In this document: one piece after another, positions 13,795 through 36,767 of the stretch
Numbering within the stretch: position 1 is the first letter of the stretch
How the letters are laid out: every line of letters begins with the position of its first letter
Source of the DNA: Escherichia phage BAU.Micro_ELP-22
DNA length: 64,000 nucleotides
Direction: 5' to 3' (one strand)
Sequence record: OR699282.2
Made by a program: the position numbers and the translations under genes
Notes under the pieces: model-generated
What the model was told of the DNA's origin: nothing
The model's input: the letters and a program-made list of their open reading frames with translations, nothing else
The model's database searches: none

Positions 13795-13797
13795 TAT

Positions 13798-14295: not shown

Positions 14296-14323
14296 TTGAC
14301 AAGTTGAAACGATGTGATATAAT
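14296..14323 (+). promoter_or_regulatory. sigma70-type promoter P2 (TTGACA, 16 nt, TGaTATAAT), a tandem copy of P1
   Basis: -35 14296-14301; -10 TATAAT 14318-14323 with upstream TG; flanks align with P1 (GTTGACAAG...GATGTGATA). Confidence 0.65.
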
Positions 14324-14492
14324 GTTCACATCAAGACAGCAAAGAGATTTACCTTTTAAACACACGGATGATTCATGAAGTAACAAAGGAACTGATAAGT
14401 TAAATTATTTTAACACAGTTCCTTTACTTTTGCCCACGGATTGGCTATAATAGAAACTTAAACGATTTTATCCAACAAAAGGAAATATATAC

Positions 14493-15818: not shown

Positions 15819-15833
15819 TTAACAAAGAGTTGT

Positions 15834-15870
15834 TGACAAGAAGGATGCCTAATGGTATCCTTCTTTTATC
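15834..15870 (+). promoter_or_regulatory. intergenic TTGACA box overlapping a weak hairpin (possible internal promoter or attenuator)
   Basis: GTTGACAAG at 15833-15841; AAGGAT...ATCCTT stem then T-rich tract; -10 candidate TATCCT is weak. Confidence 0.3.
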
Positions 15871-15892
15871 TTAACTAAACGAGGAAATATAC

Positions 15893-19857: not shown

Positions 19858-19864
19858 AAGAAAA

Positions 19865-19890
19865 GGGAGAACTGATGTTCTCCCTTTTTT
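19865..19890. terminator. bidirectional rho-independent terminator between convergent genes
   Basis: GGGAGAAC-tgat-GTTCTCCC flanked by AAAA upstream and TTTTTT downstream. Confidence 0.7.
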
Positions 19891-19891: not shown

Positions 19892-21856
19892 TTATCTAAT
19901 TGTTACCAATGTTCTTCCGTCGAAACGTACATCAGGTGTTGAAGGTATACTGAACACTACGTTAGTGCCGTTAAACGTCACGCTATCGACCTCAACACGA
20001 GTATAGACACCAGGACTAACCTGTTCCTGTATCTCTGCTGTGACGATGTTTGAGGCTGTTACAGTAAGGGTGTAGTAGTTACCACTTAAGACCCAAGATG
20101 AAATGGTAAAAGCATCGGTTCTCACTGAACCTGAACCAATTGGAACCCATTGACCTTGAACTTTTTGCATTGAAGTACGCTCGGTATTGGAGTATGCAAT
20201 CATACCATCAACGCCAACAGAGTTATCAATAGTAGCTAGTACTGGTAATTGGATACCATATCTATTAAAACGTGTTCTTATAGTTCCATTATCATAGATA
20301 CTTACATCAGCATAATTACCCATTGATAGTTTTAAATCAGAACTAACTAATTGGATTGTACTTTGATTAGTAGCACTTTCTAATGTAATTATACCATTAG
20401 CTAATAGATTTATATTTTTAAATTTATTAGTTGTTCCATTAAAATTAGTATTAGCTGTAAAAGTACTAACACCATTAACTGTAATGGTATCTGATGCAGC
20501 ATCACCTAATGTGGTATTACCTTGAATGTTCAAATTACCACTAGCAGTTATATTACTAGCTGATGTATCCCCAGTTAATGTACTTGTACCATCAACAACA
20601 ATATTACCATGAAACGCACTTTCGCCATTTTTAAATTCAACTTGAACTTTATTCATTGAACTAAATGAAATAATATTACTACTAGCACTTAATCCCACAT
20701 TAGTATTAGTTGCATTATCAAATCTTAGTACTGGCGTTGATGCAGGTGTTGATGTTGATTGATATAATGTTAGTGTTGAATTATTAATTCGAACACGTTC
20801 TGTACCAGCAGTACTGAACCCAATTGCGTCATCGGCTGGATGAAATATACCAGTATTAGCATCGGACCACTTAGTTGGGTCATTACCTGGGTTATTCGTT
20901 GGGTCAAACGGATTATTGTTAAATGTCAATGCTGGTGCTGCTGCACTTCCATACACCACCCCAAAACGCCCAGAGCCGTCTGTTCCATCATTATACATGG
21001 AATCACCAGTTCTACGTAAACACTCAATCACAACGTTATCTATGGATGTTTGAACGGTCCCTGCGTTTGTCCTAAATTGACGATGATTTGCAATCATTAC
21101 AGTATTGTCATATAATACTGAAGCAGCGGAAATGCTTGTTCTTGACTGGCGTAGACGTATGTTTTTATCTTCAGTTATAATAATCCAATCACCATCTGAT
21201 AGTGCGGTTTGGTTCATTGGAACACCTGAAGCAAATGGTTTGGTTAAGTCAGCATCTGTTGCTAAATTTTTAAGACCATCATGACCAGTACTCGGAATAG
21301 ATGCAGGAATAATTCTAGCGAAAGCGTATGTTACTAGTTTAGCACCAGATATATTTGGATTAGAGTCAACATAATATAAAATTTCAATCCAATTACCTTG
21401 TCCAGTTGGATTTGTAGGAGTAAATGTAACAGGACTTGTTTGTGGATTATTTGCTTCATAATGGGCTTGTGCGGCATCCATAATACCACGAACAACATAA
21501 TAATCACCATTTAGTGATGCTGCTGGTGCTGGTAGTGGAGTTTGTGCTAAAGGTGGATCAATATCATCTGGAATAGGATTATATGTACCAACAAATTGTA
21601 AACCACTAGTTACTGAATCTGGTAATTGGGAAGTAAGAAGTTTACCATTTGCATCTAAGTTTGCAAAACGGCGATATGCCATCGTACCATCTTCAAAATC
21701 CAGAACACCTTCAAACGATTTCCATTCCTTATTGTATCTAATCATCCCTGATCTTATTACATCAGCGGTTTCTTTTGATGGTGCTTTCGGTAACTCTAAA
21801 AAAGATTTACTATCAATAATTACACCACCATCACCTCTAATTCGATTTATACTCAT
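19892..21856 (-). CDS. tail fibre protein
   Basis: 654 aa, Thr/Ser/Asn/Gly-rich fibrous composition; GAGGAAA SD. Confidence 0.55.
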   Translation of the reverse strand: MSINRIRGDGGVIIDSKSFLELPKAPSKETADVIRSGMIRYNKEWKSFEGVLDFEDGTMAYRRFANLDANGKLLTSQLPDSVTSGLQFVGTYNPIPDDIDPPLAQTPLPAPAASLNGDYYVVRGIMDAAQAHYEANNPQTSPVTFTPTNPTGQGNWIEILYYVDSNPNISGAKLVTYAFARIIPASIPSTGHDGLKNLATDADLTKPFASGVPMNQTALSDGDWIIITEDKNIRLRQSRTSISAASVLYDNTVMIANHRQFRTNAGTVQTSIDNVVIECLRRTGDSMYNDGTDGSGRFGVVYGSAAAPALTFNNNPFDPTNNPGNDPTKWSDANTGIFHPADDAIGFSTAGTERVRINNSTLTLYQSTSTPASTPVLRFDNATNTNVGLSASSNIISFSSMNKVQVEFKNGESAFHGNIVVDGTSTLTGDTSASNITASGNLNIQGNTTLGDAASDTITVNGVSTFTANTNFNGTTNKFKNINLLANGIITLESATNQSTIQLVSSDLKLSMGNYADVSIYDNGTIRTRFNRYGIQLPVLATIDNSVGVDGMIAYSNTERTSMQKVQGQWVPIGSGSVRTDAFTISSWVLSGNYYTLTVTASNIVTAEIQEQVSPGVYTRVEVDSVTFNGTNVVFSIPSTPDVRFDGRTLVTIR

Positions 21857-21943
21857 TTAAATATTTCCTCAGAATAGATTTATATGATGTATTTATTTTA
21901 GTTAAAAGAAAAGGCCAAGCATAGACTTGACCTTAATATGTTA

Positions 21944-23680
21944 TTAAACTACAGAAACTCCACTCATTGAAGGTGGAACGATTTGTTCAGCAATTAATAA
22001 TAAATTAGTTACTGTAAACTTACCACCATGTGACATTAACGTAATAGGTGTTCCATTAGTTACTAGGTTACCATTTTCATCAACACTTAAAAATGTATTA
22101 AATGAAATAGTATCAACCGTGATAGTTGGTGTTCTAACTTGATTGATATTATTAAATTGAGTATTTGTAAAATTAATAGCAAAACTCATATTAGACGAAC
22201 TAGTAGTCCATGTACCGTATATATTTAATTTGAAATTTAGAGAGGAATTGAAATTATAAACATTTAACTTATTACTTGTTGTATTGAAGAAACTATCTAG
22301 TGTTCCACTAGTGGGTGTGAATGATTTAAGTATTTGAATTAAATTTTGTTCAATTCCATCAGTGAATTGTATATTTAAGTTTGAATAATATAATTCTCTT
22401 TTTCGACGAATTAGGTTAGTAGTATTATTACCATTAACAAATAATCCAGTACTATCTGATGTTAATATATTACCAGAGGTATTACTGATTTTAGATGAAA
22501 TTACATTAGCGTCAATAGATATACCATTTCCCGCAGTATATGAGGATGGCCCAGATGGAACATACAACCCATTTACGTCAGTTGTTAACGTATTTCCTGG
22601 CGTTGTGCTTATTTTAGTTGAAATTGTTTCAGAACTAATAGATATACCAGTACCACCAACGTAATTTATTCTTGTATTAGGTACAAATAATCCAGTACTG
22701 TCAGTAGATAGTATATTACCAGAAGTAGAACTAATTTTAGTACTGATTACTTCACCACTGATAGAAACACCGGAACCAGCACTATAAGATACTGAATTAT
22801 CAGGCACAAATAAACCATTACTTGTAGAAGATAGTATGTTTTCTGATGTCGGGTCAACCTTCACACTTATTACATCATCACTAATTGAAATTCCATTTCC
22901 TCCATTATAAGTAATTGAGCTATTAGGTACGAATAATCCATTAATATCTGATGTTAGTATATTACCAACAGTAGAACTAATTTTAGTACTTATTTGGTCA
23001 TCACTAATAGTAATGCCAGTACCAGCATTATAAGTTATCGAATTATCCGGCACGAATAGACCAGTACTATCAGTTGTAAGGATATTTCCTAAAGATGTGC
23101 TTATTTTTGATGATATAATATTATTATCTATTTTAATACTTTCACTACCTGTATATGTTACGGTATTATCAGGTACATATAAACCATCTTCGGCAATCGT
23201 GAGGATGTTACTAGGTGATGTACTGATTTTAGTTGAGATAGTATTATCACTTATTGATACACCCGTGCCACCAGAATACACAATTGAGGTATTAGGTACA
23301 TATAAACCATTAGCATCAGATATCAGAATATTTCCAGAATTTAAACTCACTTTAGCAGATATAACATTTGTATTAACATCTATACCATTTCCAGCTACAT
23401 AACTTACAGTATTATCAGGAACATACAAACCATTAGAATCATTACTAAGAATATTGCCTTGTGTTGAACTTATTTTTGTGGATATTAAATTAGAAGATAT
23501 TGATATACCAGTTCCACCTTGATAGTTAATAGTATTATCTGGAACATATAAACCATCACTTTCATGAATTAAAATATTTTTATTTTTAGTACTAATATCA
23601 GGCACTGGTATCTTGCCTATTAGTTCGCCGTCATAACTGATATCACCATTTACAATAATATCTGTTCTTATATTATACAT
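21944..23680 (-). CDS. tail fibre protein with about eleven tandem ~35-aa repeats
   Basis: Repeats of ...ISTKISSTxGNILTxDSxGLFVPDNSxxYxxGxGISIS...; ORF-track start 23704 is TTG, first ATG with SD at 23680. Confidence 0.55.
   Translation of the reverse strand: MYNIRTDIIVNGDISYDGELIGKIPVPDISTKNKNILIHESDGLYVPDNTINYQGGTGISISSNLISTKISSTQGNILSNDSNGLYVPDNTVSYVAGNGIDVNTNVISAKVSLNSGNILISDANGLYVPNTSIVYSGGTGVSISDNTISTKISTSPSNILTIAEDGLYVPDNTVTYTGSESIKIDNNIISSKISTSLGNILTTDSTGLFVPDNSITYNAGTGITISDDQISTKISSTVGNILTSDINGLFVPNSSITYNGGNGISISDDVISVKVDPTSENILSSTSNGLFVPDNSVSYSAGSGVSISGEVISTKISSTSGNILSTDSTGLFVPNTRINYVGGTGISISSETISTKISTTPGNTLTTDVNGLYVPSGPSSYTAGNGISIDANVISSKISNTSGNILTSDSTGLFVNGNNTTNLIRRKRELYYSNLNIQFTDGIEQNLIQILKSFTPTSGTLDSFFNTTSNKLNVYNFNSSLNFKLNIYGTWTTSSSNMSFAINFTNTQFNNINQVRTPTITVDTISFNTFLSVDENGNLVTNGTPITLMSHGGKFTVTNLLLIAEQIVPPSMSGVSVV
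22460..23600 (-). repeat. in-frame tandem coding repeats (~105 bp unit, about 11 copies)
   Basis: Periodic peptide repeat visible in the translation of 21944-23680. Confidence 0.6.
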
Positions 23681-23700
23681 ATATTTTTCCTTATAATGAA

Positions 23701-23728
23701 ACAAAAAAAGGTCAACTATTGTTGACCT
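23701..23728 (-). terminator. rho-independent terminator (minus strand)
   Basis: AGGTCAAC-tatt-GTTGACCT with a T-tract on the minus strand. Confidence 0.55.
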
Positions 23729-23735
23729 TTATTAA

Positions 23736-24515
23736 TTAACGTATACGTTCAGGAATATCAATACCTTCATATACCCAAATTGCAGCTTGTTGTGCTTTAT
23801 AAATTGCATCAGGATCTAAATCATCAACCGCATCAATTGCAGAACACTGTTTATCACATTCGGTAAACAATTGCTCAATCATTGCAAATGCTTCAGTATA
23901 TAGTTGTGTCATTTCAGCAGCAGATAATTTAACAATTGCATCATCAAGAAAAATAGAAACACTTTCAGAGCCTGAAGTGACTTGTGTATAATAATTAAGA
24001 AGCATTTGACGACCAGACATATCAGTACTGTAACGATGACCATTGAACATATAACCAGAATTCATACGATTTGTACGTTCTGATATAGTTCTTGCTTTTA
24101 AATCAGCTTTAACATCTGCTATTGGCATATCAATATAATGATATGTTTTAAGAACAGTTAGTGCTTTATATTCTTCGGTAGCGTCTTCTAAAAATTCAAC
24201 AATAGGTTGATTTTCATCTTTTAATTTAATAAACTCCAACGGTTGTTCAATAGCATTAACATTTCCAACATTTTTATACACTAACCACCAAAAACCTTCT
24301 TCTTTTCTAACAGCATCATTAGGTTCTACTGGGGAACCATCTTTACTTGAAATACCATAAAGAGTTCTAATATCACTATAAAGATAACGATAGGTTTGTG
24401 GATCTTCTGGTGTTGCACCAGGACGTTCTTTAAGTCCTTTTACACCAATTGGATTGGAAATAATGTTTCCCAATTCATAATTTTCTTTTGAATTTCCTTT
24501 CACATATGTGAACAT
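23736..24515 (-). CDS. hypothetical protein (within the fibre locus)
   Basis: ATG start with GAGGT SD; no motif. Confidence 0.4.
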   Translation of the reverse strand: MFTYVKGNSKENYELGNIISNPIGVKGLKERPGATPEDPQTYRYLYSDIRTLYGISSKDGSPVEPNDAVRKEEGFWWLVYKNVGNVNAIEQPLEFIKLKDENQPIVEFLEDATEEYKALTVLKTYHYIDMPIADVKADLKARTISERTNRMNSGYMFNGHRYSTDMSGRQMLLNYYTQVTSGSESVSIFLDDAIVKLSAAEMTQLYTEAFAMIEQLFTECDKQCSAIDAVDDLDPDAIYKAQQAAIWVYEGIDIPERIR

Positions 24516-24579
24516 ATAACTACCTCACTTGTTATGATGGTGTCACCCAAAATGAGTGACACCTTTATTATTATAATTA

Positions 24580-27500
24580 TTAAGCTGTACGTTGTGCAAT
24601 AAACATATCTGCTACTGGACTCACACCGTCATAAATGACTTGGTAAATGGTCACACTACCAGCAGTTTTGTTTAGAGTTCCATCAACAACCGCATAAGTA
24701 CCGTCAGTAGTAAAGTTTCTATTACCTGTTGCATCTTGTTTTACATAAATGTATACTGAAGATGCTTTACCACCACCAATTAGACCAGTGATTGGTGCTA
24801 GAGTTGTATCTTGATCTAGAGTGATAAAGTATACGTTGCTAGTACCGTCTGGGGTCCAAGTACCAGTTGGTGCGATAACAGAAGAAGTTACTTGATTAGG
24901 AATAACATCATATTTTTTAGTAGTTACTGTTGTAGTAGTTAGGTCAGCATTAGTAGTTGTTAATTGACCAGTTACAGTTACATCTTTATCAAATACCGCA
25001 TTTTCTTTGAAAGAAGATGTTGCATTGACAGTTAATGTATCAGCAGCAGCGTCACCTAAAACAACACTACCATTTGCAGTCATTAAACCAGTAACAGTTA
25101 AAGTACCACCGATGGTTGCTGCTCCAGTAACAGATGCACTAGCAAGTGTTGCTGCACCAGAAGTAGTAATGGTAGTTACTGAAGTTGCTGCTAGGGTTGC
25201 AGTACCTGTTGCAGAAATATCACCACCAACAGTTAGGTTACCAGAAGTAATTCCAACGGTTCCAGTAATGTTAGCACCACTTGACATTGTTACTGCACCA
25301 CCAAATGAACCAGTAGTAGTTACTTCAAGGGTGTTCCCTTTTAGTAGACCAGTTGCAGTAATACTTGTACCTGCGGTAATGCTAGTACCAGCAGCAACAC
25401 TGTTGGTTGCAGTTAATGATTTAACAGCTACATCAGAGTTTGCTTGGTTTAGTGTTGCGTTTAGAAGACCAGTTACTGTAAAGTTACCGTTGTTAACTAC
25501 GTTACCATTGATTGTTAAGTTGTTGTTTTGTGAACCAACATCACCAATAGTTGCTGATTTGGAAATCAACTCTGCACCAGAAGTAATGTTACCCGCTGCA
25601 CTAATAGTGTCAGCCGCAACAACTGCATAAGGTTCAATTGTTTGACCACTAACGTCAATATCAGCGTTGATACCACCATCTACACGCAAGGAGCCTGCAA
25701 TGTAAGTATTAGGGAAAATCTGAACTGTCTCTGGTTGATCACCAATTTTAGTACCAATAATAACATCAGAACCAGTTTTAACTGCACCAGAGGTTGTTAG
25801 AGAACCTAAAGTTGTAGCACCAGTTACGCCTAATGTTCCACCAATTGTTGCGTTATTGGTAACTGCTAATGCAGCACCTTCACCATTAAGAGCGATTGAT
25901 GGAGCAGATACTGCACCAGTTACGCCTAATGTTCCACCAATTGTTGCGTTGCCATCTGAATGTAGAGTTGTAGCTACAGAAAGACTGTTAGCAACTACAT
26001 CAGTACTAGCTAAATCCAATGCACCTGGGGTTAATGTACCAGTAATGTTAACATTATTACCAAAGGTTGCTGCACCAGTCACATCTAGTGTAGTACTAAA
26101 TGTACCAGAGGTTGCAGAGATTGCACCTGAATCTAGTGATCCAACAGTTGCTTTACCAGTTACACCTAAAGTTCCACCAACAGTTCCATTTGTGGTTACA
26201 TCCAATGTACCAGTACTTAGTTCTTGTGCGGTTACCTTACCGGATGCAGTAACAGTTGAAGTGGAAACGCCACCAGTTAGAGTACTAGCACCAGTAACAC
26301 TTAATGTGGTTGCAGCAGTTACGCTATTTACGCTAAGATCAGCACCGGATAAGTCCAAACCACCTTCAGGAACAAATACACCCTTAACAGTTAGTTTTTG
26401 TACTGTACTATCACCTGTTACATCCAAGGTAGAAGCAGTTAAACCACCATTCATACTTGCTGCACCAGTAACACCTAGTGTAGTGGTTACAGTAGCACTA
26501 TTAAGTGTTGAACTACCAGAAATATTAGCACTAGGAGCAGTAATAGTTCCAGAATCAACTTGTATACCACCTGCAACAACCTGAATTCCACCAGCATTAA
26601 CTGTTAGTTTACCAGCAGTATTCAATGTATTTGAAACTGTTGTTGCACCAGTTAAAGTTGTAGTACCAGTTACACCTAAGTTACCAGAAATAGATGGACT
26701 ACCTGTAATATTACCAGTAGTTAGTATCAAATCAGTACCTACGGTAGTGGAGCCAGTACTTTCTAGTGTTACACCAACGATGTTTGCAGAACTTAGGTTA
26801 ATAGTACCATCAACAGTTAAGTTACCTTGAACGGTTGCATCACCTAGAGAAGTTAATGTCTTCACAGACACATCAGTTGTGCTAAGATCAATAACACCCG
26901 CAGTTAGTGTTCCAGATACTGCTAAATTACCAGTAATCGCGGTATTTTTAGTAATGGATACATTTTCTGCCGCTGAAGTAATAGAACCAACAGTAAGTAC
27001 ACCACCAACAGTTGCGTTATTAGTTACATTTAGAGCAGTTCCAACACCAGATAGTGTTGCTGACCCACCAGTAATTGCACCTGAGATTGAAGCTGTTGCT
27101 GCTGAAACATCACCAGAAACTACTGCATTTGTTGCATTTAGAGCAGACACTGTTACTTCAGTACTTTGAACTTTAGGTAGAACGTTGATACCTTCTGCAC
27201 TACTAACTGTAATAATACCAGTACTTGTTATAGATTTAACAGATACATCAGCACCACTTAAATCAACTGTACCAGAAACAACAAGATCTCCACCAATATT
27301 TGCTCCAGCGGTAGTAGTAATGGATTTTGCACTTACATCAGTTGTGCTCAAATCAATTGCACCTGGTGTTACTGTACCAGAAACTGTTAGGTCACCAGTA
27401 ATAGATGTATTATTGGAAATAGATACACCATCAACGTTACTAATTGTTGGGGTTTCTACAGAAACTGCTTTAACTTTACCTGAAGAAGTTACGTCAGCTA

Positions 27501-30105
27501 CGGTAGATGCACCAGTAACATTCAAATTAGTAATATTTGCAGTTGTTGAACCAAGGGTTGCAATAGTTGCATCAGTACTTTGAAGTTTAGGTAGAACACT
27601 ACTAATTGTGGATTCATTACTAACAATTGCACCAGTACTAGTTAAAGATTTGACAGTAACATCAGCCGTAGTAAGATCTACTGTACCATTAACAGTTAGG
27701 TTACCACCAATAGTTGCACCAGCAGTAGTAGTAATGGATTTAGCATTAACATCAGTTGTTGCTAGATCGATAGAGCCTGGAATAACTGCACCAGTAACGG
27801 TTAGGTCACCAGTTACATTTGTATTATTGGAAATAGTGACACCACTTGCATTTGAAATGGTTGGGGTAACCAACGATGCAGTTGTAGTTTCACCAGTTAC
27901 AGTTAAAGTTGACCCAACTAGAACAGATGAGCTTGAGTAAATTGTACCCAAATTAGCAGATCCGGAAACAGTTATATCATCAGCATTAACAGTAGTTGCC
28001 GTTATGGTAGTACTATTAAGTACTGGAAGTACGTTAGCATTAACAAGATCATTACTTTTAACAATACCAGAAGTAGTTAATGATTTAACATTAAGGTCGG
28101 CTGCTGATAAATCAAAAGAGCCTTGAACTACTAAATCACCACCAATAGTTGCACCAGCAGTAGTAGTGATTGATTTAGCATTAATATCGGTAGTGCTCAA
28201 GTCTAGAGAACCAACAGTTAAGCTACCAGTAATATCAACATTTTCTGTAAAGTTAGTATTACCACTAATAGTTGGTGCAGTCAGAGTTGTTGCACTAATA
28301 TTAGTACCGTTAATTGTTTGCCCACTTACAGTTCCACTCGCAGTGATAGTAGGAGCCGTTACTTCAGTAGATGCACTAATTGTTGGTGCAGATACAGAAG
28401 TTGTACCAGTAATAGAACCAGAACTTACTGAACCAGCGGATAATGCACCAGAAAGAGTTGCAGTTGTACCAGCAATATCACCAGTAACAGTTAGTTTAGC
28501 ACCCACGGTAGTGTTACCAGTACTTTCAAGTGTTGCACCTTTAATATTTGCTGCCGCGACAACAGAATTAGGTGTTAGATCCTGACCACTAACATCAACA
28601 GTTAGTCCAGTTACTGTTCCAGTAAATTCAACATCATTAAGAATTGCTTTACCACCAACTTGTAGGAATGGTGTACCTGGAGCTTGTGTTTCGTTACCAG
28701 TAATAGTTAGGTAATCTAGTTTGTTTAGACCGTTACCAGTAATACCATAAGTGGAAAGAGAAGCGTTACCGAAAGTTGCTGTTTTAAGAACGTTCAATGT
28801 AGAAGGAGAAACAACTTCTGATTGAACTTCGTTAGGTAGAATAACTGTTGGGCGTTGACCTGGTGCAGTATATCCAAAACCTAGTTTCACTGCCGCATCT
28901 TGACTATTTTGACCTAAGCTGATAGCTTTAAAGGATGCAGTACTGTTATAACCAGTAATATTAGAACCAAGAGTAACACCACCAACTAATGAAGTTACAC
29001 CAGTAACGTTCAAAGATACTGCATTGATATCGTCTAGTTGGAACGTTCCACCAAGAAGTCCAGAAACATTAATGTTATTAAAATTAGCAGTACCAGTACT
29101 TTCGATATTTGGAATAGTTGCAGTTCCGGTTACTTCAAAGTCCGCAACTTTAGTTTTGCCTTTTTGAACTTCTAATAGTGGTGTGTCTGGTGATTGTGTA
29201 TTGTTACCAGAAACTGTTAGATAATCTAATTTGTTTAGACCATTACCAGTAATACCATAAGAAGATAATGACGCATTACCAAAAGAAGCAGAGGTCAATA
29301 CTGTCAAGTTTGCAGGTGACATTAGCTCGGACTGAATTTCGTTTTGTAGAATAACAGTTGGGCGTTTACCAGGAGCAGTGTAAGGGAAGCTTAATCTGAA
29401 GGTTTGTGATTCAGAGTTAGAACCAATACGAATGTCTTTAAAAGTAGCAGTACTGTTAATACCAGTTACGTTAGCACCGAAAGTTACTGCACCTTGTTGG
29501 TTAGATGCACCAGTAACGTTCAATGTTACTGCATTTAAGTCAGATAGATTAAACTCACCACCAAGTGTACCACTAATTGTCACATCTTTAAATGTAGCAG
29601 TACCAGTACTACTAATATCTGTTGTACTTACATTAGTAATTTCTGCGGTATTAGCAGTAATTTTATCAAATGCAGCAGTAGTCCCAACATCAGCAGTAAT
29701 ATTACCTTTAAATGCTGTTGTTTCAGCAACTTCTAAGTTTTTAACTTTAGTTGCTTGTAGAGTGGTTGTACCAGCAGTTTGTGTAAAATCAGAACCAACT
29801 GATACAGTACCGTTAAAGGTAGCGTTTGAATTAATTGTTGCTGTATCAGACCCGACAACTGCACTACCGATTGTAGTATTACCCTCAACACCAAGACCAC
29901 CAGAAAGTGTTGCTTTGCCACCTACATCTAAAGTAGATGTAATATTGGCAGTTGATGATTCAATGGCAGTAAAAGTTGCATTTGCAAAAGTTACAGTACC
30001 ATTTACAGTTAGGTTATTATTGAAAACAGCATTTCCTTTGACTAAAAGATCCTTACCAACCGTACCAGCACCAGTAATATCTAAGTCAGTTTTTATTGAG
30101 TACAT
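24580..30105 (-). CDS. giant fibrous protein (1841 aa), probable tail fibre
   Basis: Thr/Gly/Ser/Val-rich beta-rich repeats; GGAGGG SD; internal duplications at two scales. Confidence 0.65.
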   Translation of the reverse strand: MYSIKTDLDITGAGTVGKDLLVKGNAVFNNNLTVNGTVTFANATFTAIESSTANITSTLDVGGKATLSGGLGVEGNTTIGSAVVGSDTATINSNATFNGTVSVGSDFTQTAGTTTLQATKVKNLEVAETTAFKGNITADVGTTAAFDKITANTAEITNVSTTDISSTGTATFKDVTISGTLGGEFNLSDLNAVTLNVTGASNQQGAVTFGANVTGINSTATFKDIRIGSNSESQTFRLSFPYTAPGKRPTVILQNEIQSELMSPANLTVLTSASFGNASLSSYGITGNGLNKLDYLTVSGNNTQSPDTPLLEVQKGKTKVADFEVTGTATIPNIESTGTANFNNINVSGLLGGTFQLDDINAVSLNVTGVTSLVGGVTLGSNITGYNSTASFKAISLGQNSQDAAVKLGFGYTAPGQRPTVILPNEVQSEVVSPSTLNVLKTATFGNASLSTYGITGNGLNKLDYLTITGNETQAPGTPFLQVGGKAILNDVEFTGTVTGLTVDVSGQDLTPNSVVAAANIKGATLESTGNTTVGAKLTVTGDIAGTTATLSGALSAGSVSSGSITGTTSVSAPTISASTEVTAPTITASGTVSGQTINGTNISATTLTAPTISGNTNFTENVDITGSLTVGSLDLSTTDINAKSITTTAGATIGGDLVVQGSFDLSAADLNVKSLTTSGIVKSNDLVNANVLPVLNSTTITATTVNADDITVSGSANLGTIYSSSSVLVGSTLTVTGETTTASLVTPTISNASGVTISNNTNVTGDLTVTGAVIPGSIDLATTDVNAKSITTTAGATIGGNLTVNGTVDLTTADVTVKSLTSTGAIVSNESTISSVLPKLQSTDATIATLGSTTANITNLNVTGASTVADVTSSGKVKAVSVETPTISNVDGVSISNNTSITGDLTVSGTVTPGAIDLSTTDVSAKSITTTAGANIGGDLVVSGTVDLSGADVSVKSITSTGIITVSSAEGINVLPKVQSTEVTVSALNATNAVVSGDVSAATASISGAITGGSATLSGVGTALNVTNNATVGGVLTVGSITSAAENVSITKNTAITGNLAVSGTLTAGVIDLSTTDVSVKTLTSLGDATVQGNLTVDGTINLSSANIVGVTLESTGSTTVGTDLILTTGNITGSPSISGNLGVTGTTTLTGATTVSNTLNTAGKLTVNAGGIQVVAGGIQVDSGTITAPSANISGSSTLNSATVTTTLGVTGAASMNGGLTASTLDVTGDSTVQKLTVKGVFVPEGGLDLSGADLSVNSVTAATTLSVTGASTLTGGVSTSTVTASGKVTAQELSTGTLDVTTNGTVGGTLGVTGKATVGSLDSGAISATSGTFSTTLDVTGAATFGNNVNITGTLTPGALDLASTDVVANSLSVATTLHSDGNATIGGTLGVTGAVSAPSIALNGEGAALAVTNNATIGGTLGVTGATTLGSLTTSGAVKTGSDVIIGTKIGDQPETVQIFPNTYIAGSLRVDGGINADIDVSGQTIEPYAVVAADTISAAGNITSGAELISKSATIGDVGSQNNNLTINGNVVNNGNFTVTGLLNATLNQANSDVAVKSLTATNSVAAGTSITAGTSITATGLLKGNTLEVTTTGSFGGAVTMSSGANITGTVGITSGNLTVGGDISATGTATLAATSVTTITTSGAATLASASVTGAATIGGTLTVTGLMTANGSVVLGDAAADTLTVNATSSFKENAVFDKDVTVTGQLTTTNADLTTTTVTTKKYDVIPNQVTSSVIAPTGTWTPDGTSNVYFITLDQDTTLAPITGLIGGGKASSVYIYVKQDATGNRNFTTDGTYAVVDGTLNKTAGSVTIYQVIYDGVSPVADMFIAQRTA
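27050..28280 (-). repeat. three to four tandem ~135-aa coding repeats inside the giant fibre gene
   Basis: Recurring G(S/A)IDLSTTDV(N/S)AKSITTTAGAxIGGxLxVxG...DLSxADVxVKSxT. Confidence 0.55.
28640..29640 (-). repeat. two tandem ~165-aa coding repeats (~500 bp each) near the N-terminus of the giant fibre
   Basis: DNA around 28690-29160 and 29200-29630 aligns by eye; peptide blocks FGNASLS(S/T)YGITGNGLNKLDYLT and YTAPG(K/Q)RPTVIL repeat. Confidence 0.6.
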
Positions 30106-30194
30106 TTATACCCTCCATTATAACCTTGTTAATATGTATATATTTAGTTTTATTATGCTGTTATCCAACAATTAATATGTTATTTGACAAAAGC

Positions 30195-30240
30195 AAATAT
30201 AATAAAAAACCAGACTTATTTAGAACAAGTCTGGTTAATT
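30195..30240. terminator. hairpin with T-tracts on both strands, just after the 30244-31140 stop
   Basis: AACCAGACTT-9 nt-AAGTCTGGTT. Confidence 0.55.
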
Positions 30241-30243
30241 TTT

Positions 30244-31140
30244 TTACTTACCAGAGATTACAATCTTACCACTGAAAGAAATATCAGAAGTGAAGATTAC
30301 ATCACCAGTACTACTAATTTGTGTATCAGTCACTACCAATTCAAATGGAGATGACGCAACACTCCCAGGTGTTTTATTTGCATAAATTGAAATATACAAA
30401 TTATCTGGTGTTTGATTGTGTTCAGATGCAGGAATAGTGATTGTAAAATCACCAGCACTAGAAACCCAATCTGCTTGGTTTACCAATTTACTATAAGGTA
30501 CTGTCATTGTTGTTGCTCCTATAATGTTTACTTTAACACTTGCATAATCTGTGATTTGACCAATCACATCAATTGTTATATCCCCAATACCACTAACTGT
30601 TACTGTGGTTTGGAATACTGATTCCAATGCAACATTACCTGGGTCACCTTGTAGTTGGATCATAATATCAGAACCTCTACCATGAACTGATTCTGGTAGT
30701 GTGTAAGTATAATGATCAGTAGTATCTGGTACTAATGTAAATGCAGAAACAGGAACTATTTCAGTAGTTACATATGAACTATCAGTCCCAGGTGAGCTAC
30801 CTTTAAATGGTTTCCAAATACCAAGATCTTTAATATAAATTTGAAGAACATTAGTACTATCAACCAAAAAGTAAACGTCACCATCTAGACCGATTGAATC
30901 GGATGGTGCTGTTGTTCCACGTAAGATACCAGAACTACCACCACCACTGTGTGCGTTTAAATATCCCAATGTAACCAAGTGTGTGTTTGCAGTTGGTTCA
31001 CCTGCTGAAATTGGAAGAAGTTGTGTTCCTGAGTAGTTTTGAATTTGCACAACACTACCATTTGTGGTAATCTGTGCACCATTCTTCCCAAGAATGAAGG
31101 ACTTCTTCATGGTTCCTTCTAAATTAGAAAAAACTGCCAT
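30244..31140 (-). CDS. receptor-binding protein (short) sharing an N-terminal domain with the adjacent tailspike
   Basis: N-terminus MAVFSNLEGTMKKSFILGKNGAQI... parallels MAVFSNFEGTMQPKFILGKKGASI... of 31157-33298. Confidence 0.5.
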   Translation of the reverse strand: MAVFSNLEGTMKKSFILGKNGAQITTNGSVVQIQNYSGTQLLPISAGEPTANTHLVTLGYLNAHSGGGSSGILRGTTAPSDSIGLDGDVYFLVDSTNVLQIYIKDLGIWKPFKGSSPGTDSSYVTTEIVPVSAFTLVPDTTDHYTYTLPESVHGRGSDIMIQLQGDPGNVALESVFQTTVTVSGIGDITIDVIGQITDYASVKVNIIGATTMTVPYSKLVNQADWVSSAGDFTITIPASEHNQTPDNLYISIYANKTPGSVASSPFELVVTDTQISSTGDVIFTSDISFSGKIVISGK

Positions 31141-31156
31141 TTTAATATAATCTCCT

Positions 31157-33298
31157 TTATGGTAGGGTTATGTAAGTTACGGGTTGGGCAGCTTTTAATG
31201 CTGCACCAGCGGCAGTTGCTGTTATGATAGGATCTGCAATATCAATTCTATATACGTTGTTTACAACATACACTGCACGAGTTATATACGTTCTCAAATC
31301 ACCACCATTTTCACCAGCACCGGATATAATGATCTCAGTACCAGCAGCTTTTGCATATTGGTTTTCACCCCATGACACACCCAATGCTTCTATGTATGTT
31401 TGTCCTACTACCGTTTGTCTAATTGTGTCATATTTTCCGAAAAAAGAACCACCAACAGTTACAATATATTTTCCACCCGATTGTTTATGAATAATCGTGC
31501 CTTCAGAGAAATAGCGTCCCCCAGGAAAAGTATCGTATGGAATATAATATTGCTCAACTACAGGTATCAGTACTGGGCCACGGTGACCTGTACCATCGAT
31601 TGCAGTTGTAACTTTAAAGTTATTAGATGATTGGTCTATTCTGTCTACATACATTTTAGAAAAACTATATTTTGAAACATTACAATCATCTTGAACAACA
31701 CAGTTAGTCCAATTAGTATAAGTATATTTAGAGCGAGTATAGATACCACCACCTTCGCCTTCGGTAGAGAGGTGTTGACCAATTACATCTAATTCTTTAG
31801 TTCTAATATCACTAAATTTAGATGATGATGGCAAACCACGCCAAAGGATTTTAGAACAGGTGATATTGCTCAATTCTGTATTATTTAACCAATTATCAGA
31901 ACCGGAAGTATAAACAAGTATAGAAGACTCTGGAATATAGAGATTAGAAATTTTAAAGTTTCTAGGTGGTCCAGCAAAACGACCAGAAGTTACACCCCAG
32001 TTTATTGAAACCATTCTATTTGTGATAGAAGGATCATTAAGCAAATGACCAGTCAACCCATCAATAATGAATTCTTTCGAACCATAAGTTATAACACCAG
32101 CAGTGGTTAATCCAGTACCAACAGAAACTAAAGATGATGGATAAACTTCATTATTAAGTATTTTAAAGTCCATTCCTAATTCAACGTGGATACATTGTCT
32201 AACATTATATAGTCTGTTATTTTTAATAACAAAGTTTCTGACATATTGTGTATCTGGTGCATCTAAACCATAAGGTCCAGAACCAGCAACGCCAATACCA
32301 ATACCCCAGTTTGAAAGTGGGATTGGAGCGTTAGAACCATCAACGTTTTCAATTACGTTTCCTTCAATCACAAAACCATCAGGATAATGTGAGTTAATTA
32401 CGTTTAGTTCAATTGCATCACCATAGATATCATGAATATGGTTATATGAATATCTACCAACCTTCATTTTCTCACCAGTACCTTGTTGAAGAACACCATA
32501 CTTACATTGGGTCATTTCATTAAAGCAAAAATCTATTGTTCCTGGTTGTGTCATACCTTGCATTAAAAATGCAGCAGTACTTGTGATGTTTATAAATTTA
32601 TTAAAATAAAACTTACCATCTCCACCGAAGAATTTTAAATAACATCCAGTAAGTGTTGCAAATTGTATTTGGGAATTAATAACGGATACCATAGTACCAC
32701 CATTACCAGTAATAGTTCCCCCAAACCAAGTTACATCTTCCAGGTATATTGCAGTTTTGATACGGTAATTACCACCAGCCTGAATTTGGATTTTATTTTC
32801 TTTAGCATAAGCAGCACATAAATTTACAGCAGCAGTGTCATCAGTTTCGCCATCACCTTTAGCACCAAATTCTTCTGGTGTTATATAAAACTGTGCCTGT
32901 TGAACTGTACCTCCAGTAATAAGTCCGATGAAATCTCCACCATTTTTACTGGATAGAACTTTTTTATTAATGTATAATGATTTTACCCATGTACCATTGC
33001 TTTTTGCAAAAATATCAACAATACCATCTTCATCAATTTGAAAATACGTATTATTGTTCTTTCCTATATCATCTGTAGGTGGTACAACACCAAATAATGC
33101 ATTAGGGTTATCTTCAAGATATTTTACGTTAACTGCTGAATTAGGGTCAGATGAAGTTCCTACCTTCAGTGGTAGGAACTGTTCTCCTAGATAATCTTTT
33201 ATAGAAACTGAATCATTGATAAAATTTATTGAAGCACCTTTTTTCCCCAATATGAATTTGGGCTGCATAGTTCCTTCAAAATTAGAAAATACTGCCAT
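31157..33298 (-). CDS. tailspike with a pectate-lyase-fold polysaccharide depolymerase domain
   Basis: Signature EEFGAKGDGETDDTAAV typical of right-handed beta-helix glycanases; N-terminal domain shared with the neighbour. Confidence 0.7.
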   Translation of the reverse strand: MAVFSNFEGTMQPKFILGKKGASINFINDSVSIKDYLGEQFLPLKVGTSSDPNSAVNVKYLEDNPNALFGVVPPTDDIGKNNNTYFQIDEDGIVDIFAKSNGTWVKSLYINKKVLSSKNGGDFIGLITGGTVQQAQFYITPEEFGAKGDGETDDTAAVNLCAAYAKENKIQIQAGGNYRIKTAIYLEDVTWFGGTITGNGGTMVSVINSQIQFATLTGCYLKFFGGDGKFYFNKFINITSTAAFLMQGMTQPGTIDFCFNEMTQCKYGVLQQGTGEKMKVGRYSYNHIHDIYGDAIELNVINSHYPDGFVIEGNVIENVDGSNAPIPLSNWGIGIGVAGSGPYGLDAPDTQYVRNFVIKNNRLYNVRQCIHVELGMDFKILNNEVYPSSLVSVGTGLTTAGVITYGSKEFIIDGLTGHLLNDPSITNRMVSINWGVTSGRFAGPPRNFKISNLYIPESSILVYTSGSDNWLNNTELSNITCSKILWRGLPSSSKFSDIRTKELDVIGQHLSTEGEGGGIYTRSKYTYTNWTNCVVQDDCNVSKYSFSKMYVDRIDQSSNNFKVTTAIDGTGHRGPVLIPVVEQYYIPYDTFPGGRYFSEGTIIHKQSGGKYIVTVGGSFFGKYDTIRQTVVGQTYIEALGVSWGENQYAKAAGTEIIISGAGENGGDLRTYITRAVYVVNNVYRIDIADPIITATAAGAALKAAQPVTYITLP

Positions 33299-33312
33299 TA
33301 TGACATCCTCCC

Positions 33313-34428
33313 TTAAATATTATCTTGAATCGGTTGGATAGGAGCTTGCCATGAAAGAGTACAAATAATTTCCATTTTTCCATAAGGACTGTTGTTAACA
33401 GAATCGTTGAATACACATGAAATAATTTCATCAACATCGGATGCTGCATGATTAGTTTCATTAACAATAAAACGCATCTGACGATTGATATCAAAGTAGG
33501 AAGTTGGTGCAATTACCGTCCCGCCAATATCTTCTTGTGCTTCACCACCAAAACGTACAAACATATCAGTTACTGGAAGAGAATAAGGTTGTATAACGTT
33601 TACATCAATATTAGAAACTACATATCCAGCAGGACATGTACCAATAACTAATAGTGCGTTAGTCCATGAGCTATCTATGGTATTTCTAATAGAAATTGTA
33701 TCTTTACCTGGTGCACCTGGTTCGCCTTGTATACCTTGAATACCTTGCTGACCTTCTTTACCACGGAATAGAATACCATCACTCCACTCTTTTGAAGGAG
33801 GGGTAGTTGTAGTTACTTCATCAACATAATATAGTTTTCCATCAGTGTTGTTATAAAAACAATAATCAACTGGAAGATTTTCAATACTTGGAAATTGATC
33901 ACCACTGCTATCAATATGGAAACGACCACGCGGACCTTGTTCACCACGGAAAGGTATACCATCACTCCAAGTAGCAGTTACACTTTGATAGAAATAAAGT
34001 TTACCATCTTGAGTATTATAAAATGTATAGTTATTAAAAAGACCAGTTGTTGGGAAAGTAGTTCCAGCACTATCAATGTGGAACGGCTTACCCGCTTCAC
34101 CCGTATCACCTTTACCAAACTCAACACTAATCCATGTACTTGTCGGATCTTGTGCATCATTTGATTTAAAGTATAGAGTACTGGTATTGTTAGCCAAGCT
34201 TAAGTAGCACCACCCAAGTGGTTCACCAACTTTAAATTGTTCGGAAGGAATTTCAAAACCAATCTCATTAGGATAAAAGTTTTTACCATTCTCGCCATTC
34301 TGTCCTACAACAAGACCTAAATCTTGAATTGTGTTATCTGCATAGGTTACAATTAAATGCCCAGCACCATTAATAACTAGACTTTTGATGCCGGAGTTAT
34401 TACATGAACCATTAAATGAAATTGTCAT
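33313..34428 (-). CDS. tail fibre protein with short collagen-like Gly-X-Y runs
   Basis: RGEQGPRG and GKEGQQGIQGIQGEPGAPGKD; ORF-track start 34464 is TTG, first ATG with AAGGGAAA SD at 34428. Confidence 0.5.
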   Translation of the reverse strand: MTISFNGSCNNSGIKSLVINGAGHLIVTYADNTIQDLGLVVGQNGENGKNFYPNEIGFEIPSEQFKVGEPLGWCYLSLANNTSTLYFKSNDAQDPTSTWISVEFGKGDTGEAGKPFHIDSAGTTFPTTGLFNNYTFYNTQDGKLYFYQSVTATWSDGIPFRGEQGPRGRFHIDSSGDQFPSIENLPVDYCFYNNTDGKLYYVDEVTTTTPPSKEWSDGILFRGKEGQQGIQGIQGEPGAPGKDTISIRNTIDSSWTNALLVIGTCPAGYVVSNIDVNVIQPYSLPVTDMFVRFGGEAQEDIGGTVIAPTSYFDINRQMRFIVNETNHAASDVDEIISCVFNDSVNNSPYGKMEIICTLSWQAPIQPIQDNI

Positions 34429-34538
34429 AATATTTCCCTTGTATGAGTTAATGTCATATACCAATATTTATCAGTACAAAATACATTTCGTTATCATTAA
34501 TAAATAAATGAAAGTTCACTACTAAAAGGGCTTAAACA

Positions 34539-35036
34539 ATGGCATTAAGATCAAAAGACTTTCTCTTCAGAAGAAAAACAAAAGATGGTTCATGGCAAGA
34601 TTTTCCTGAATCTGATAGCTGGTATCCAGCTAACTTGGATTATCACTGGAATGAACAAACGTTACCACTCGCAAGTGGTGGCTACTATGGCTGTACTACA
34701 GGTTTACATACTATTTCATTTACACTACGTAATTTTATTGGTAGAATTTATGTATTAGCTACATTAGCTAGTAATCCTACTGATGATGATTGGTTTCCAA
34801 TTAAATTCACTGAAAGTTGTAATTATTATCTTGAATTTACTGATATGGTTATTTTAAATCCAAATGGTGGGGATTTAATTAGACAACAAGGAACTACCGG
34901 AACATTTGCTGAAACAGTAACTGGTAATTTTACTTACCTTAAAGTTGGTATAGACCGTGATTATATTAGTAAGTATCCATCAGATGTCCAAAAAAGTTTA
35001 GCTGGGAAGTTAGAACAAATTTTAATTAACTACTAA
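34539..35036 (+). CDS. hypothetical protein
   Basis: ATG start, divergent from the fibre block. Confidence 0.4.
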   Translation: MALRSKDFLFRRKTKDGSWQDFPESDSWYPANLDYHWNEQTLPLASGGYYGCTTGLHTISFTLRNFIGRIYVLATLASNPTDDDWFPIKFTESCNYYLEFTDMVILNPNGGDLIRQQGTTGTFAETVTGNFTYLKVGIDRDYISKYPSDVQKSLAGKLEQILINY

Positions 35037-35045
35037 GGATTAGAA

Positions 35046-35654
35046 ATGAAATTAGAAACAGAACAACCAAAACTATTTGTTAAAGGTCATGTCCTAATTA
35101 CTGACGTTACTGATCCATCAAATCAAAAAATCGTTTTAGATAAATCTAACGCTATTCACCCTGAAAATATGAGTACTGCCATTGCTAATGCGTTAGCATA
35201 TAATCAAGACAGTACTGGTATTCCTATTGGTTCTATTAGCGAGATGCGTTTTGGTAATGGTGGTACAGTAGTTTTAAGTACTGGTCGTGTTACTTATAAA
35301 AAACCACGTGTTACATCATTCGGTGGTTTGTATTCACAAACATATTTGAAAAAAATCAACCCACGAATTACGGCAGGTATTGATTCACAATACAATAATA
35401 TTACAACTGTACATATACCAGGACAGTCCTATACTGATATTGTATGTATTTGTACTCTAGGGTTAGGTGAACCATCCGACCAAGGTGTAAGCTCAGGGAC
35501 AAGCATGGATGGAACTTATGTATTTGATGAATTGGGATTGTACACGGATGGCGATAGTGGTATTCCTTTAACCCATATCATTTTTCACCCAGTTGAGAAA
35601 AGTGCAAACCGTGTCTTACAAATTAAATACACAGTTCGTGTACAATTACAATAA
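35046..35654 (+). CDS. hypothetical protein (possible baseplate or fibre accessory)
   Basis: ATG start; position only. Confidence 0.4.
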   Translation: MKLETEQPKLFVKGHVLITDVTDPSNQKIVLDKSNAIHPENMSTAIANALAYNQDSTGIPIGSISEMRFGNGGTVVLSTGRVTYKKPRVTSFGGLYSQTYLKKINPRITAGIDSQYNNITTVHIPGQSYTDIVCICTLGLGEPSDQGVSSGTSMDGTYVFDELGLYTDGDSGIPLTHIIFHPVEKSANRVLQIKYTVRVQLQ

Positions 35655-35666
35655 TGGGGACATATA

Positions 35667-36767
35667 ATGAGTGTTAATTATACAATTTATAGAAGTAATG
35701 GTAGTGTTTATGCTACCATTCCAAATAATGTTATTTTAGGACCAAACCAACCCGGAAGTAACCCAGTTCCGTTAAATTTAGTTGGTAGAAATAAAGTAAG
35801 TTACGGTCAAGCATGGAATGAAAACTTTTTACATTTAGTTGAAAATTTCAGTTCAGCATCTGCACCACGTGGCAACGTCAATGGTCAACTTTGGTATAGA
35901 AACACTGGTAGTACTGGTGAGTTATTGATATCATTAGTTGATAATGCTAGACAACCTGCTGATATGGTAAGTGAAGCTGAATGGGCGTCTATCCCTATGA
36001 TTACTGTTTTTAACACAGTACCTGATGGTGAAAATAGTGTTATGGGTCGTATGGTATTAACTAGTAACGGTGATTCTCTTCGTGTGTTAATGAAAAACAA
36101 AGAATGGCGTGAAATTCAAACATCTAGACCAGAAAACAAAGAGTATTCATCATTATTAGATATTAACTATGATAATGGTAAAAAATATATAGAGTTCACA
36201 CAAAGTAATAGTACTAAACCGATTGCGTATTTTAACTTAGGTGGTACTTCACAAGTAGATACAAATAACTGGACAACATTAACTAATGGTACTGGTGTCT
36301 TTGAATTTGGTAGCAACTATTTCTATGAATTAAAAATTATGATTAGAGAAGTAAATGATTCTTCTGGTGAGATAGTTTCTCTTCCATACAATTCCAAAAC
36401 CTTTTTTATAAAAGGGCAATTTTATGTAGATAATCAAGGAACTTTTGTTCCTGGTTCGGTGGGGGCAAGTCAAATGCCAGACCCACGTAGGATTACACAA
36501 TTAGAATCCATTAAAGATGTTATTACCAGTAGTCGCCCAAACTGGGACGTAAATATTGTTATTAATGGTGTAGATCCATCTATCCCAAATCCTAATGGAA
36601 CATCTAAAGCTGATTATGAAAATTGGGTTATCAATTCTCTAAACTCAAATAAAAATTTAGGTTTTCGAGTTGATGGTAGTATTAGTAATCTAACTGCTGG
36701 TGAATCCGTTAAACTACAAGCATCCGTGTTGTTAAATATTACAGGTATTCCGATTATTGGAGTATAA
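35667..36767 (+). CDS. hypothetical protein
   Basis: ATG start; no motif. Confidence 0.4.
   Translation: MSVNYTIYRSNGSVYATIPNNVILGPNQPGSNPVPLNLVGRNKVSYGQAWNENFLHLVENFSSASAPRGNVNGQLWYRNTGSTGELLISLVDNARQPADMVSEAEWASIPMITVFNTVPDGENSVMGRMVLTSNGDSLRVLMKNKEWREIQTSRPENKEYSSLLDINYDNGKKYIEFTQSNSTKPIAYFNLGGTSQVDTNNWTTLTNGTGVFEFGSNYFYELKIMIREVNDSSGEIVSLPYNSKTFFIKGQFYVDNQGTFVPGSVGASQMPDPRRITQLESIKDVITSSRPNWDVNIVINGVDPSIPNPNGTSKADYENWVINSLNSNKNLGFRVDGSISNLTAGESVKLQASVLLNITGIPIIGV

Follow-up and report, generated by a model that had tools for sequence, protein, structure and literature searches.

Which parts of a phage particle are encoded by a locus with a row of fibrous genes, and which of its products would touch the host? 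We addressed this question for a minus-strand locus (19892 to 34464) of Escherichia phage BAU.Micro_ELP-22 (OR699282.2), within a window, the whole stretch of DNA analyzed, of 64,000 nucleotides (nt). A first-pass annotation had described six fibrous genes in a row and had proposed a branched or multivalent adsorption apparatus with a broad or capsule-dependent host range. The open reading frame (ORF) listing recovered all six ORFs on the minus strand, with the coordinates and lengths claimed, and the locus contains a seventh gene that had been overlooked, encoding a 259-amino acid (aa) protein with a DUF4376 domain. Judged from sequence, the seven genes fall into a five-gene core (371, 298, 1841, 259 and 654 aa), which other RaK2-like genera also have, and two accessory genes (713 and 578 aa). 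The best explanation overall, and one that we consider quite probable, is that the locus specifies a multivalent adsorption set consisting of a colanidase and several fiber tips. Multivalence, as first proposed, is plausible given at least three distinct distal domains; branching and capsule dependence fared worse.

The locus is already known from other phages, since near-identical annotated loci and virion proteomes of relatives are public. Megablast of the locus assigned the window to the genus Asteriusvirus, the 121Q/PBECO4-type jumbo coliphages. Phage UB covered 98% of the locus at 95.6% identity, and 121Q, slurp01, SP27 and others covered 88% at 98-99% identity; identity of the locus to deposited genomes was 95-99%, and the 24 kb downstream were 99.8% identical to SHEFM2K, SP27, CRJP21 and PBECO4. 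The loci of 121Q (gp569-574), PBECO4, CRJP21, UB, G17 and phAPEC6 (gp253-258) share one gene order with the window, at protein identities of 95-100%. The giant fiber in the window belongs to the 121Q/G17 type (99-100%) and the knob fiber to the CRJP21/UB type, and the 654-aa protein has the same sequence as that of PBECO4 (100% identity). The window differs from these relatives in being a mosaic that combines a 121Q-type giant fiber with a PBECO4-type knob cassette. New here are the missed gene for a putative chaperone, the corrected starts, the split into core and accessory genes, two shared candidate attachment modules, the terminator junction and a ten-repeat knob allele. Gene content, homologies, module sharing and presence or absence among relatives were observed directly in this work.

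Evidence that the core proteins belong to the virion is carried over from relatives. The syntenic genes CBB_228-227-226-225-224 of Pectobacterium phage CBB encode homologs of the 371-, 298-, 1841-, 259- and 654-aa proteins, and all five were found in purified CBB virions by mass spectrometry (MS), with 13, 5, 10, 16 and 22 peptides from CBB_228 to CBB_224 and coverage of 44% for CBB_228 and 68.5% for CBB_225. MS of phAPEC6 virions detected gp253, the homolog of the 371-aa protein (65.6% coverage), and gp256, the giant fiber. These detections contradict the possibility that most of the proteins are not virion components. In the GenBank record of phAPEC6 (MK817115; locus at 3931-16754), gp254, gp255, gp257 and gp258 are unannotated, and the published proteome could therefore not list them. 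The phAPEC6 DNA encodes a homolog of the 654-aa protein that is 98.9% identical, and the rest of its locus is 98.8% identical in DNA. The main text of Hua et al. 2017 on 121Q contains no mass spectrometry, a search of the JP4 supplementary files for locus tags found none, and our literature search found no cryo-electron microscopy study of an Asteriusvirus tail later than phAPEC6.

The 713-aa protein (31157..33298, minus strand) is a colanidase tailspike. Its residues 96-712 aligned with chain residues 11-623 of PDB 6E0V (phmmer, E=1.8e-235), a match that confirms its description as a depolymerase tailspike and identifies a Phi92 gp150-type depolymerase body. It also matched PHROG 6117 'colanic acid degradation' (E=4.4e-264). 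The Pfam family PF12708 scored 24.2 bits, under the 27-bit cut-off, and the beta-helix fold is implied through 6E0V homology alone. Phi92 gp150 presumably degrades colanic acid, and the body of the 713-aa protein is homologous to it and to its Justusliebigvirus counterparts over the whole length of the body; a colanidase occurs with several other fibers in their virions as in this one. The body was ~57% identical to Justusliebigvirus genes named 'colanidase tailspike', with the match starting only at residue 96. Names in the Justusliebigvirus records and PMC12210895 likewise describe gp150 as a colanic acid degrader. In contrast, the N-terminal attachment domain of those proteins is unrelated: residues 1-105 of the 713-aa protein (nt ~32984-33298) form instead a docking module of the type found in the 298-aa protein of the RaK2-like clade.

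The 298-aa protein (30244..31140, minus strand) is a conserved virion protein in which the docking module (residues 1-110, nt 30811-31140) is followed by two immunoglobulin-like (Ig-like) beta-sandwich domains, an arrangement also seen in its AlphaFold2 (AF2) model (predicted local distance difference test score, pLDDT, of 77). The N-termini of the 298- and 713-aa proteins were 39% identical over the first ~105 residues (E=7e-20). Among 1.84 billion proteins searched, the module was N-terminal in proteins of 113-141 aa (the module alone), ~290, 705-780 and 1218-1366 aa, and the larger of these carried beta-helix, BNR/sialidase-like, CBM5/12 or S74-chaperone fiber payloads. Because the module heads proteins with so many lengths and payloads, it is likely to be a generic docking adapter. 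Its residues ~65-110 are found, in addition, within many long fiber-like proteins, where they form a repeated internal hairpin. A colanidase with a 298-type N-terminus was found in Asteriusvirus only. It is a well supported proposal that the colanidase gene took the attachment end of the core 298-aa protein, in which case the fusion would lie at about residue 96.

The 1841-aa protein (24580..30105, minus strand) was confirmed as a giant fiber by PHROG 4549 'tail fiber protein' (E=2.8e-226), by a match of its C-terminus to the phiTE tail fiber (9CUY_g, E=2.4e-29) and by internal repeats. It contains 19% Thr and 12% Gly and is also rich in Ser, Ala and Val. Residues 141-338 resemble residues 316-507 (49-65% identity), and modules of ~140 aa are duplicated within residues 612-1001. 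The tip (residues ~1657-1838, nt ~24592-25137) is common to myovirus tail fibers, and the C-terminus matched rV5-, phAPEC8- and CR8-type tail fibers in addition to that of phiTE. At the other end, the N-terminal sequence MYSIKTDL is invariant in giant fibers from the coliphages through CBB. The label 'long tail fiber proximal subunit' (T4 gp34) was rejected as a family assignment: a phmmer comparison with every chain in the PDB, permitting E values up to 1, recovered 9CUY_g alone and no gp34 chain. The RaK2 paper gives 5NXH as a gp34 structure in the PDB.

The overlooked gene (23736..24515, minus strand) starts 64 nt beyond the giant fiber gene with no intervening terminator, and CBB_226 and CBB_225 are arranged alike. 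Its 259-aa product matched Pfam DUF4376 at residues 135-236 (37.3 bits versus a gathering cut-off of 25) and PHROG 17968 'virion structural protein'. In the Alteromonas phages V22 and A5, DUF4376 proteins act as transient caps or chaperones of tail fibers, and their genes directly follow the fiber gene. Based on the domain, the position after the fiber gene, the joint loss of both genes from this locus in RaK2 and the published function, the 259-aa protein is probably a chaperone or tip-cap partner of the giant fiber that would be co-transcribed with it. Like V22 gp27 and A5 gp9, it is a protein of ~200-260 aa with DUF4376 in its C-terminal half, encoded immediately 3' of a fiber gene; unlike theirs, its partner is a fiber of 1841 aa. 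Because CBB_225 is abundant in mature virions, as its 68.5% coverage indicates, the association with the fiber may be stable rather than transient.

The second accessory gene encodes a knob-tipped repeat fiber of 578 aa (21944..23680, minus strand). The repeat fiber of 586 aa described before was borne out in kind, with ten 41-aa repeats and a knob, and needed a corrected start. The TTG start of the longer ORF (23704) lies within the T-tail of a terminator hairpin, and we place the start at the ATG at 23680, behind an AAGGA ribosome-binding site; UB and CRJP21 are annotated with the same N-terminus. The ten repeats (nt ~22391-23620) are in register, with a spacing of exactly 41 aa nine times and a DNA period of 123 nt. 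They lead to an Sf6-type tail-needle knob (nt ~21983-22411) that matched Pfam Phage_tail_NK at residues 432-574 (95.6 bits versus a cut-off of 27) and PDB 3RWN and 4K6B (E ~2e-27). The C-terminal 143 residues thus match the needle knobs of Sf6 gp9 and HS1 (3RWN, 4K6B; PF16532) far above threshold, but here the knob sits on ten beta-rich repeats in a contractile-tailed jumbo myovirus and not on a podovirus needle of the P22 gp26 coiled-coil type. No gp26-like coiled-coil needle was found in this protein: its N-terminal 430 residues are Ser/Thr/Asn/Gly/Ile-rich repeats, and its composition (~2% Ala, 2% Glu and 7% Leu) is unlike that of a coiled coil. Knob-bearing proteins are also scattered in T4-like, Vi1-like and other myoviruses. 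The knob fiber begins with MYNIRTDI, and among the ORFs of the window only the giant and knob fibers carry either this motif or MYSIKTDL; the knob fiber may have borrowed the attachment end of the giant fiber.

The knob fiber gene was present only in PBECO4 (where the homolog matches over its full length), CRJP21, UB and the window, and was absent from 121Q, G17, JP4, UE-S1, JNE01 and fEgEco12. It is flanked by two terminator hairpins on the minus strand. One (23707..23730) ends the giant fiber and DUF4376 unit and forms the upstream junction of the cassette. The other (21911..21934) lies 3' of the knob fiber gene and, from a hairpin scan and alignment to the intergenic region of 121Q and G17, is equivalent to the sole terminator of the 'empty' site in those phages. 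Both hairpins begin with AAGGTCAA, and the empty site has one such hairpin, an arrangement that fits a self-contained, moron-like insertion of the cassette at a terminator. There are 7 repeats in UB and CRJP21 compared to 10 here, and the ten-repeat allele was in no phage-collection record. A recent expansion of the repeats was rejected, as the repeat units are 45-76% identical in DNA. Because the units are this old, the 7-repeat alleles are more likely to be in-register deletions.

Two further core proteins complete the locus. The 371-aa conserved virion protein (33313..34428, minus strand) is the product of the first gene of the locus and matched PHROG 13565 'tail protein' (E=2.3e-220). Its homologs are 121Q gp574, phAPEC6 gp253, CBB_228 and RaK2 ORF062, with full-length identity of 67% to RaK2 ORF062 and 57% to CBB_228. 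It had been listed as 383 aa from a spurious TTG start; the ATG at 34428, behind AAGGGA, gives 371 aa. This start agrees with the 121Q annotation, and the PHROG match begins at residue 13 of the longer ORF. The case for a collagen-like fiber is weak: the score for Pfam Collagen was 16.3 bits, below the cut-off of 27.2, and the GXY runs, which lie between conserved beta-hairpin modules, have 3, 3, 3 and 7 triplets, the longest being 7. A short trimeric linker is nevertheless plausible because a one-triplet deletion in the GXY region of RaK2 keeps the register. The protein also has a Cys-rich C-terminal domain, and PDB searches, including profile searches, gave no significant match, only sub-threshold WW-like and lectin matches.

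The 654-aa conserved virion protein (19892..21856, minus strand) has several domains, and its AF2 model (pLDDT 69) ends in Ig-like sandwiches at the C-terminus. Residues ~390-530 form a shaft-like segment that resembles the N-terminal region of the giant fiber (BLAST E=8e-9), and the proposed role as a fiber is plausible. Its C-terminal hairpin and Ig-like module are homologous to the body of the 298-aa protein, with residues 542-625 corresponding to residues 78-184 of the shorter protein (hhalign probability 85%, E=5.8e-6). Sequence and profile searches of the PDB gave no significant match for either the 654-aa or the 298-aa protein, and no lectin or enzyme fold was detected in the 371-, 298- or 654-aa proteins.

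Put together, these results suggest how the fiber and tailspike module of a PBECO4/121Q-type jumbo myovirus, set within its tail and baseplate gene region, might work. The 371-aa protein would probably be trimeric, with short collagen-type linkers. The 298-aa protein would be a short appendage made of the docking module and two Ig-like domains, and the 654-aa protein a short fiber with a distal module related to the body of the 298-aa protein. The giant fiber would work with its DUF4376 chaperone or tip cap. The two accessory receptor-binding genes would have been built by re-use of attachment ends from the core. On contact, the colanidase would strip colanic-acid slime, and several tips (that of the giant fiber, the knob and the Ig-like modules of the 654- and 298-aa proteins) would touch the cell surface. 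The docking sites and receptors in this scheme are ones that we infer.

Several observations weigh against a multivalent adsorption set. The 371-, 298- and 654-aa proteins are conserved over their full length across host genera, which speaks against specific receptor binding. The likeness between the ends of the knob and giant fibers (MYxI+TD) extends over eight residues only. The colanidase and the knob fiber are without direct proteomic support, as their phAPEC6 homologs are unannotated or absent from the genome, and no protein of the locus has been localized on an Asteriusvirus virion. The phAPEC6 'virion' MS is not fully specific, since it lists a thymidylate synthase (gp259c) and an ATPase (gp265c); this could reflect either non-structural carry-over or packaging of the two enzymes. 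In the window, the counterparts of gp259c and gp265c are at 18928-19857 and 14493-15818, both on the plus strand. Finally, no promoters were identified: there were 56 sigma-70-like sites compared to 63 in shuffled sequence.

The first of these points underlies the alternative that survives best, that the 371-, 298- and 654-aa proteins serve as conserved structural or adapter components, at the baseplate or the periphery, without receptor binding, and that host contact is made by the colanidase, the giant fiber and the knob fiber only. The 654- and 298-aa families are conserved over their full length at ~50% identity in phages of Escherichia, Cronobacter, Yersinia, Erwinia, Serratia, Salmonella and Klebsiella. 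Conservation includes the C-termini, across phages of Escherichia, Klebsiella, Cronobacter, Pectobacterium, Erwinia, Yersinia and Salmonella, and the 371-aa protein and its RaK2 homolog have 67% identity, compared to ~50% for the others. There was no exchange of C-terminal cassettes in these three proteins within the genus. Another point in favor is the lack of a detected lectin or enzyme fold. Full-length conservation at ~50-67% identity in genera with different hosts argues against the three proteins as host-range determinants, and the description of the 298-aa protein as a short receptor-binding protein is unsupported as worded. Because of this conservation, the three proteins are better explained as parts with a structural or adapter role than as host-range cassettes. 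However, the docking module of the 298-aa protein bears enzymatic and carbohydrate-binding payloads in other proteins, which suggests a peripheral, host-facing place. Some homologs of the 654-aa protein have swapped or extended C-termini (756 to ~1100 aa, 72-73% coverage). In addition, Ig-like domains often mediate weak glycan binding. On balance, we find it somewhat doubtful that all three proteins lack a role in host contact.

The variation that was found among relatives is concentrated elsewhere. A comparison for cassette exchange, as the first-pass annotation had suggested, revealed exchange in the knob fiber, the giant fiber and the colanidase, and it was limited to those three. Giant fibers in the genus vary in length, from 1841 aa here to 1959 aa in UB and 2129 aa in JP4 and CRJP21. 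Two phages have tandem giant fibers, of 2120 and 1628 aa in JNE01 (5422-16809) and of 1906 and 1644 aa in fEgEco12 (4543-15347), with the MYSIKTDL N-terminus in common and two differing types of C-terminal tip. The JP4 colanidase (18336-18941) has shrunk to 201 aa, keeping the N-terminal module and the last ~50 residues, and the JNE01 colanidase gene is split. The substrate of the enzyme is colanic acid, and an internal part of it is deleted in JP4, a viable phage, while it is split in JNE01; a capsule-dependent host range is therefore not supported.

A second alternative concerns where the giant fiber sits. Electron microscopy (EM) of 121Q, phAPEC6, fEgEco12 and CBB shows long 'hairy' whiskers in rings on the sheath and on the capsid, ~119 nm long in CBB with a small terminal globule, and EM of phAPEC6, fEgEco12 and CBB shows only six short baseplate fibers (~29 nm in CBB). 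The giant fiber and its DUF4376 partner, perhaps with the knob fiber, might form the whiskers, which are explicitly unassigned in the papers on these relatives, and a shorter protein, for example that of 654 aa, might supply the baseplate fibers. The T4 gp34 fiber scales at 0.054 nm per residue. With this factor, a crude estimate of length is ~99 nm for the giant fiber (1841 aa) and 84 nm for CBB_226, compared to ~35 nm for the 654-aa protein and CBB_224. RaK2 lacks both the giant fiber and the DUF4376 gene. According to the CBB paper, no whiskers had been described in the other RaK2-like phages then published. Because of the length estimate, the loss in RaK2 and the lack of described whiskers in other RaK2-like phages, the giant fiber is a reasonable whisker candidate. 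On the other hand, the length estimate is crude, and the tip of the giant fiber is common to annotated baseplate-type or lateral tail fibers (rV5-, phAPEC8-, CR8- and phiTE-like). GAP32 has a homolog of the giant fiber, and whiskers are unreported for GAP32. There are also other candidates, for example the large arrays of RCC1-like paralogs in 121Q and PBECO4. We therefore regard the assignment to whiskers as unlikely, and slightly less credence goes to its extended form, in which the knob fiber would be an optional second whisker with the same docking peptide and the baseplate fibers would be the 654-aa protein. If true, genes would be assigned to an unexplained virion structure and a set of sheath-mounted adhesins would be defined.

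The branched apparatus proposed at first has a precedent in the Alcyoneusvirus phages RaK2 and PhiKp24. These phages are in the same clade as the one analyzed here, and RaK2 has homologs of the 371-aa protein (ORF062), the 654-aa protein (ORF060) and the 298-aa module (ORF061) at the syntenic site. The RaK2 locus consists of these three genes, ORF062, ORF061 and ORF060. ORF061, of 115 aa, comprises only the N-terminal module seen in the 298-aa protein, and ORF060 is the counterpart of the 654-aa protein but lacks residues 371-526. Unlike the window, RaK2 has no giant fiber, DUF4376 gene, colanidase or knob fiber at this locus, and the match to the 713-aa protein in genomes of RaK2-type Klebsiella jumbo phages was confined to the N-terminal module, in the ORF061 homolog. 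The branched fibers of RaK2 (gp098 and gp526-534, with seven depolymerases) are encoded elsewhere in the genome. No confident branching domains, which in a fiber of the RaK2 or PhiKp24 type would be CBA120 TSP-like D1/D2/XD domains, were found in the proteins of the locus, and only the 713-aa protein has a depolymerase signature, compared to seven or more depolymerases of the RaK2 type.

That all six or seven proteins would be joined in one branched long fiber as in RaK2 and PhiKp24, with a broad range dependent on capsule type, thus seems very improbable: the phage does belong to the RaK2-like clade, where an apparatus of this kind was shown experimentally, and two pairs of its proteins have common N-terminal modules, a hallmark of docking by multiple receptor-binding proteins, but there is one depolymerase here versus seven in RaK2, the RaK2 branched fiber is encoded away from a syntenic site reduced to three genes, the CBB paper finds the RaK2 tailspikes without counterparts in CBB or GAP32, EM of Asteriusviruses shows short baseplate fibers and not branched ones, and JP4, without most of its colanidase, is viable with a narrow host range (3/68 clinical E. 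coli isolates lysed). A multivalent adsorption set of one colanidase and several fiber tips remains the explanation that we prefer.

The hairpins suggest how the locus might be expressed. In addition to the two that flank the knob fiber gene, there is an intrinsic terminator-like hairpin (30208..30236, minus strand; 13-bp stem and T-run) after the 298-aa gene, and a hairpin (19861..19888, minus strand; 12-bp stem and T-run) that closes the locus and, being convergent, is common to the thymidylate synthase gene. Terminators are annotated at the matching sites in G17 and UE-S1, except after the knob fiber gene, which both phages lack. Minus-strand transcription is accordingly predicted to run as four terminator-bounded units: the 371-, 713- and 298-aa genes (unit 1, which the 371-aa gene begins), the 1841- and 259-aa genes, the 578-aa gene, and the 654-aa gene. 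The T4 late-promoter core TATAAATA was depleted, with 2 occurrences in 64 kb compared to 10.4 expected from shuffles. Despite this depletion, a gp55-like late sigma factor (121Q gp591) is encoded in the 121Q segment that is syntenic with the window.

The tail and baseplate gene region encloses the locus. Genes for the sheath, tube and neck are upstream, and those for a sheath completion protein resembling T4 gp15, a virion protein of 3333 aa, a wedge resembling gp6, a gp25-like protein and a lysozyme hub are downstream. Three divergent virion-protein genes (34539..36767, plus strand; 165, 202 and 366 aa; 121Q gp575-577; 121Q annotation and PHROGs) lie next to the locus and precede the gp15-like gene, and relatives of the divergent genes were seen by MS (phAPEC6 gp250c and gp251c; CBB_230 and CBB_231). 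The 3333-aa ORF (42547-52548, minus strand) adjoins the baseplate wedge gene and has homologs in 121Q gp582, phAPEC6 gp245 and CBB_236. The phAPEC6 homolog, of 382 kDa with 17 MS peptides, is a giant virion protein. Between the gp6-like wedge and gp25-like genes, the window has only ~100 bp (56059-56161) at the place where 121Q has the HNH endonuclease gene gp584, described in the 121Q record as 'associated with group I intron'; the window carries the endonuclease-free allele. On the other side of the locus, the adjoining thymidylate synthase coding sequence is 1554 nt in UE-S1 compared to 930 nt in the window and 121Q, which suggests an insertion or fusion in UE-S1. There were no tRNA genes in the whole 64-kb window.

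For work on jumbo coliphages in phage therapy, these results provide a map of the locus that separates conserved parts from exchangeable ones, namely the colanidase, the knob fiber and the copy number and length of the giant fiber. The two candidate attachment modules may be usable for grafting new receptor-binding payloads, and the DUF4376 gene is flagged as encoding a probable chaperone that would be needed for expression of the giant fiber. The giant fiber is also a testable candidate for the whiskers, so far unassigned, that EM shows on relatives.

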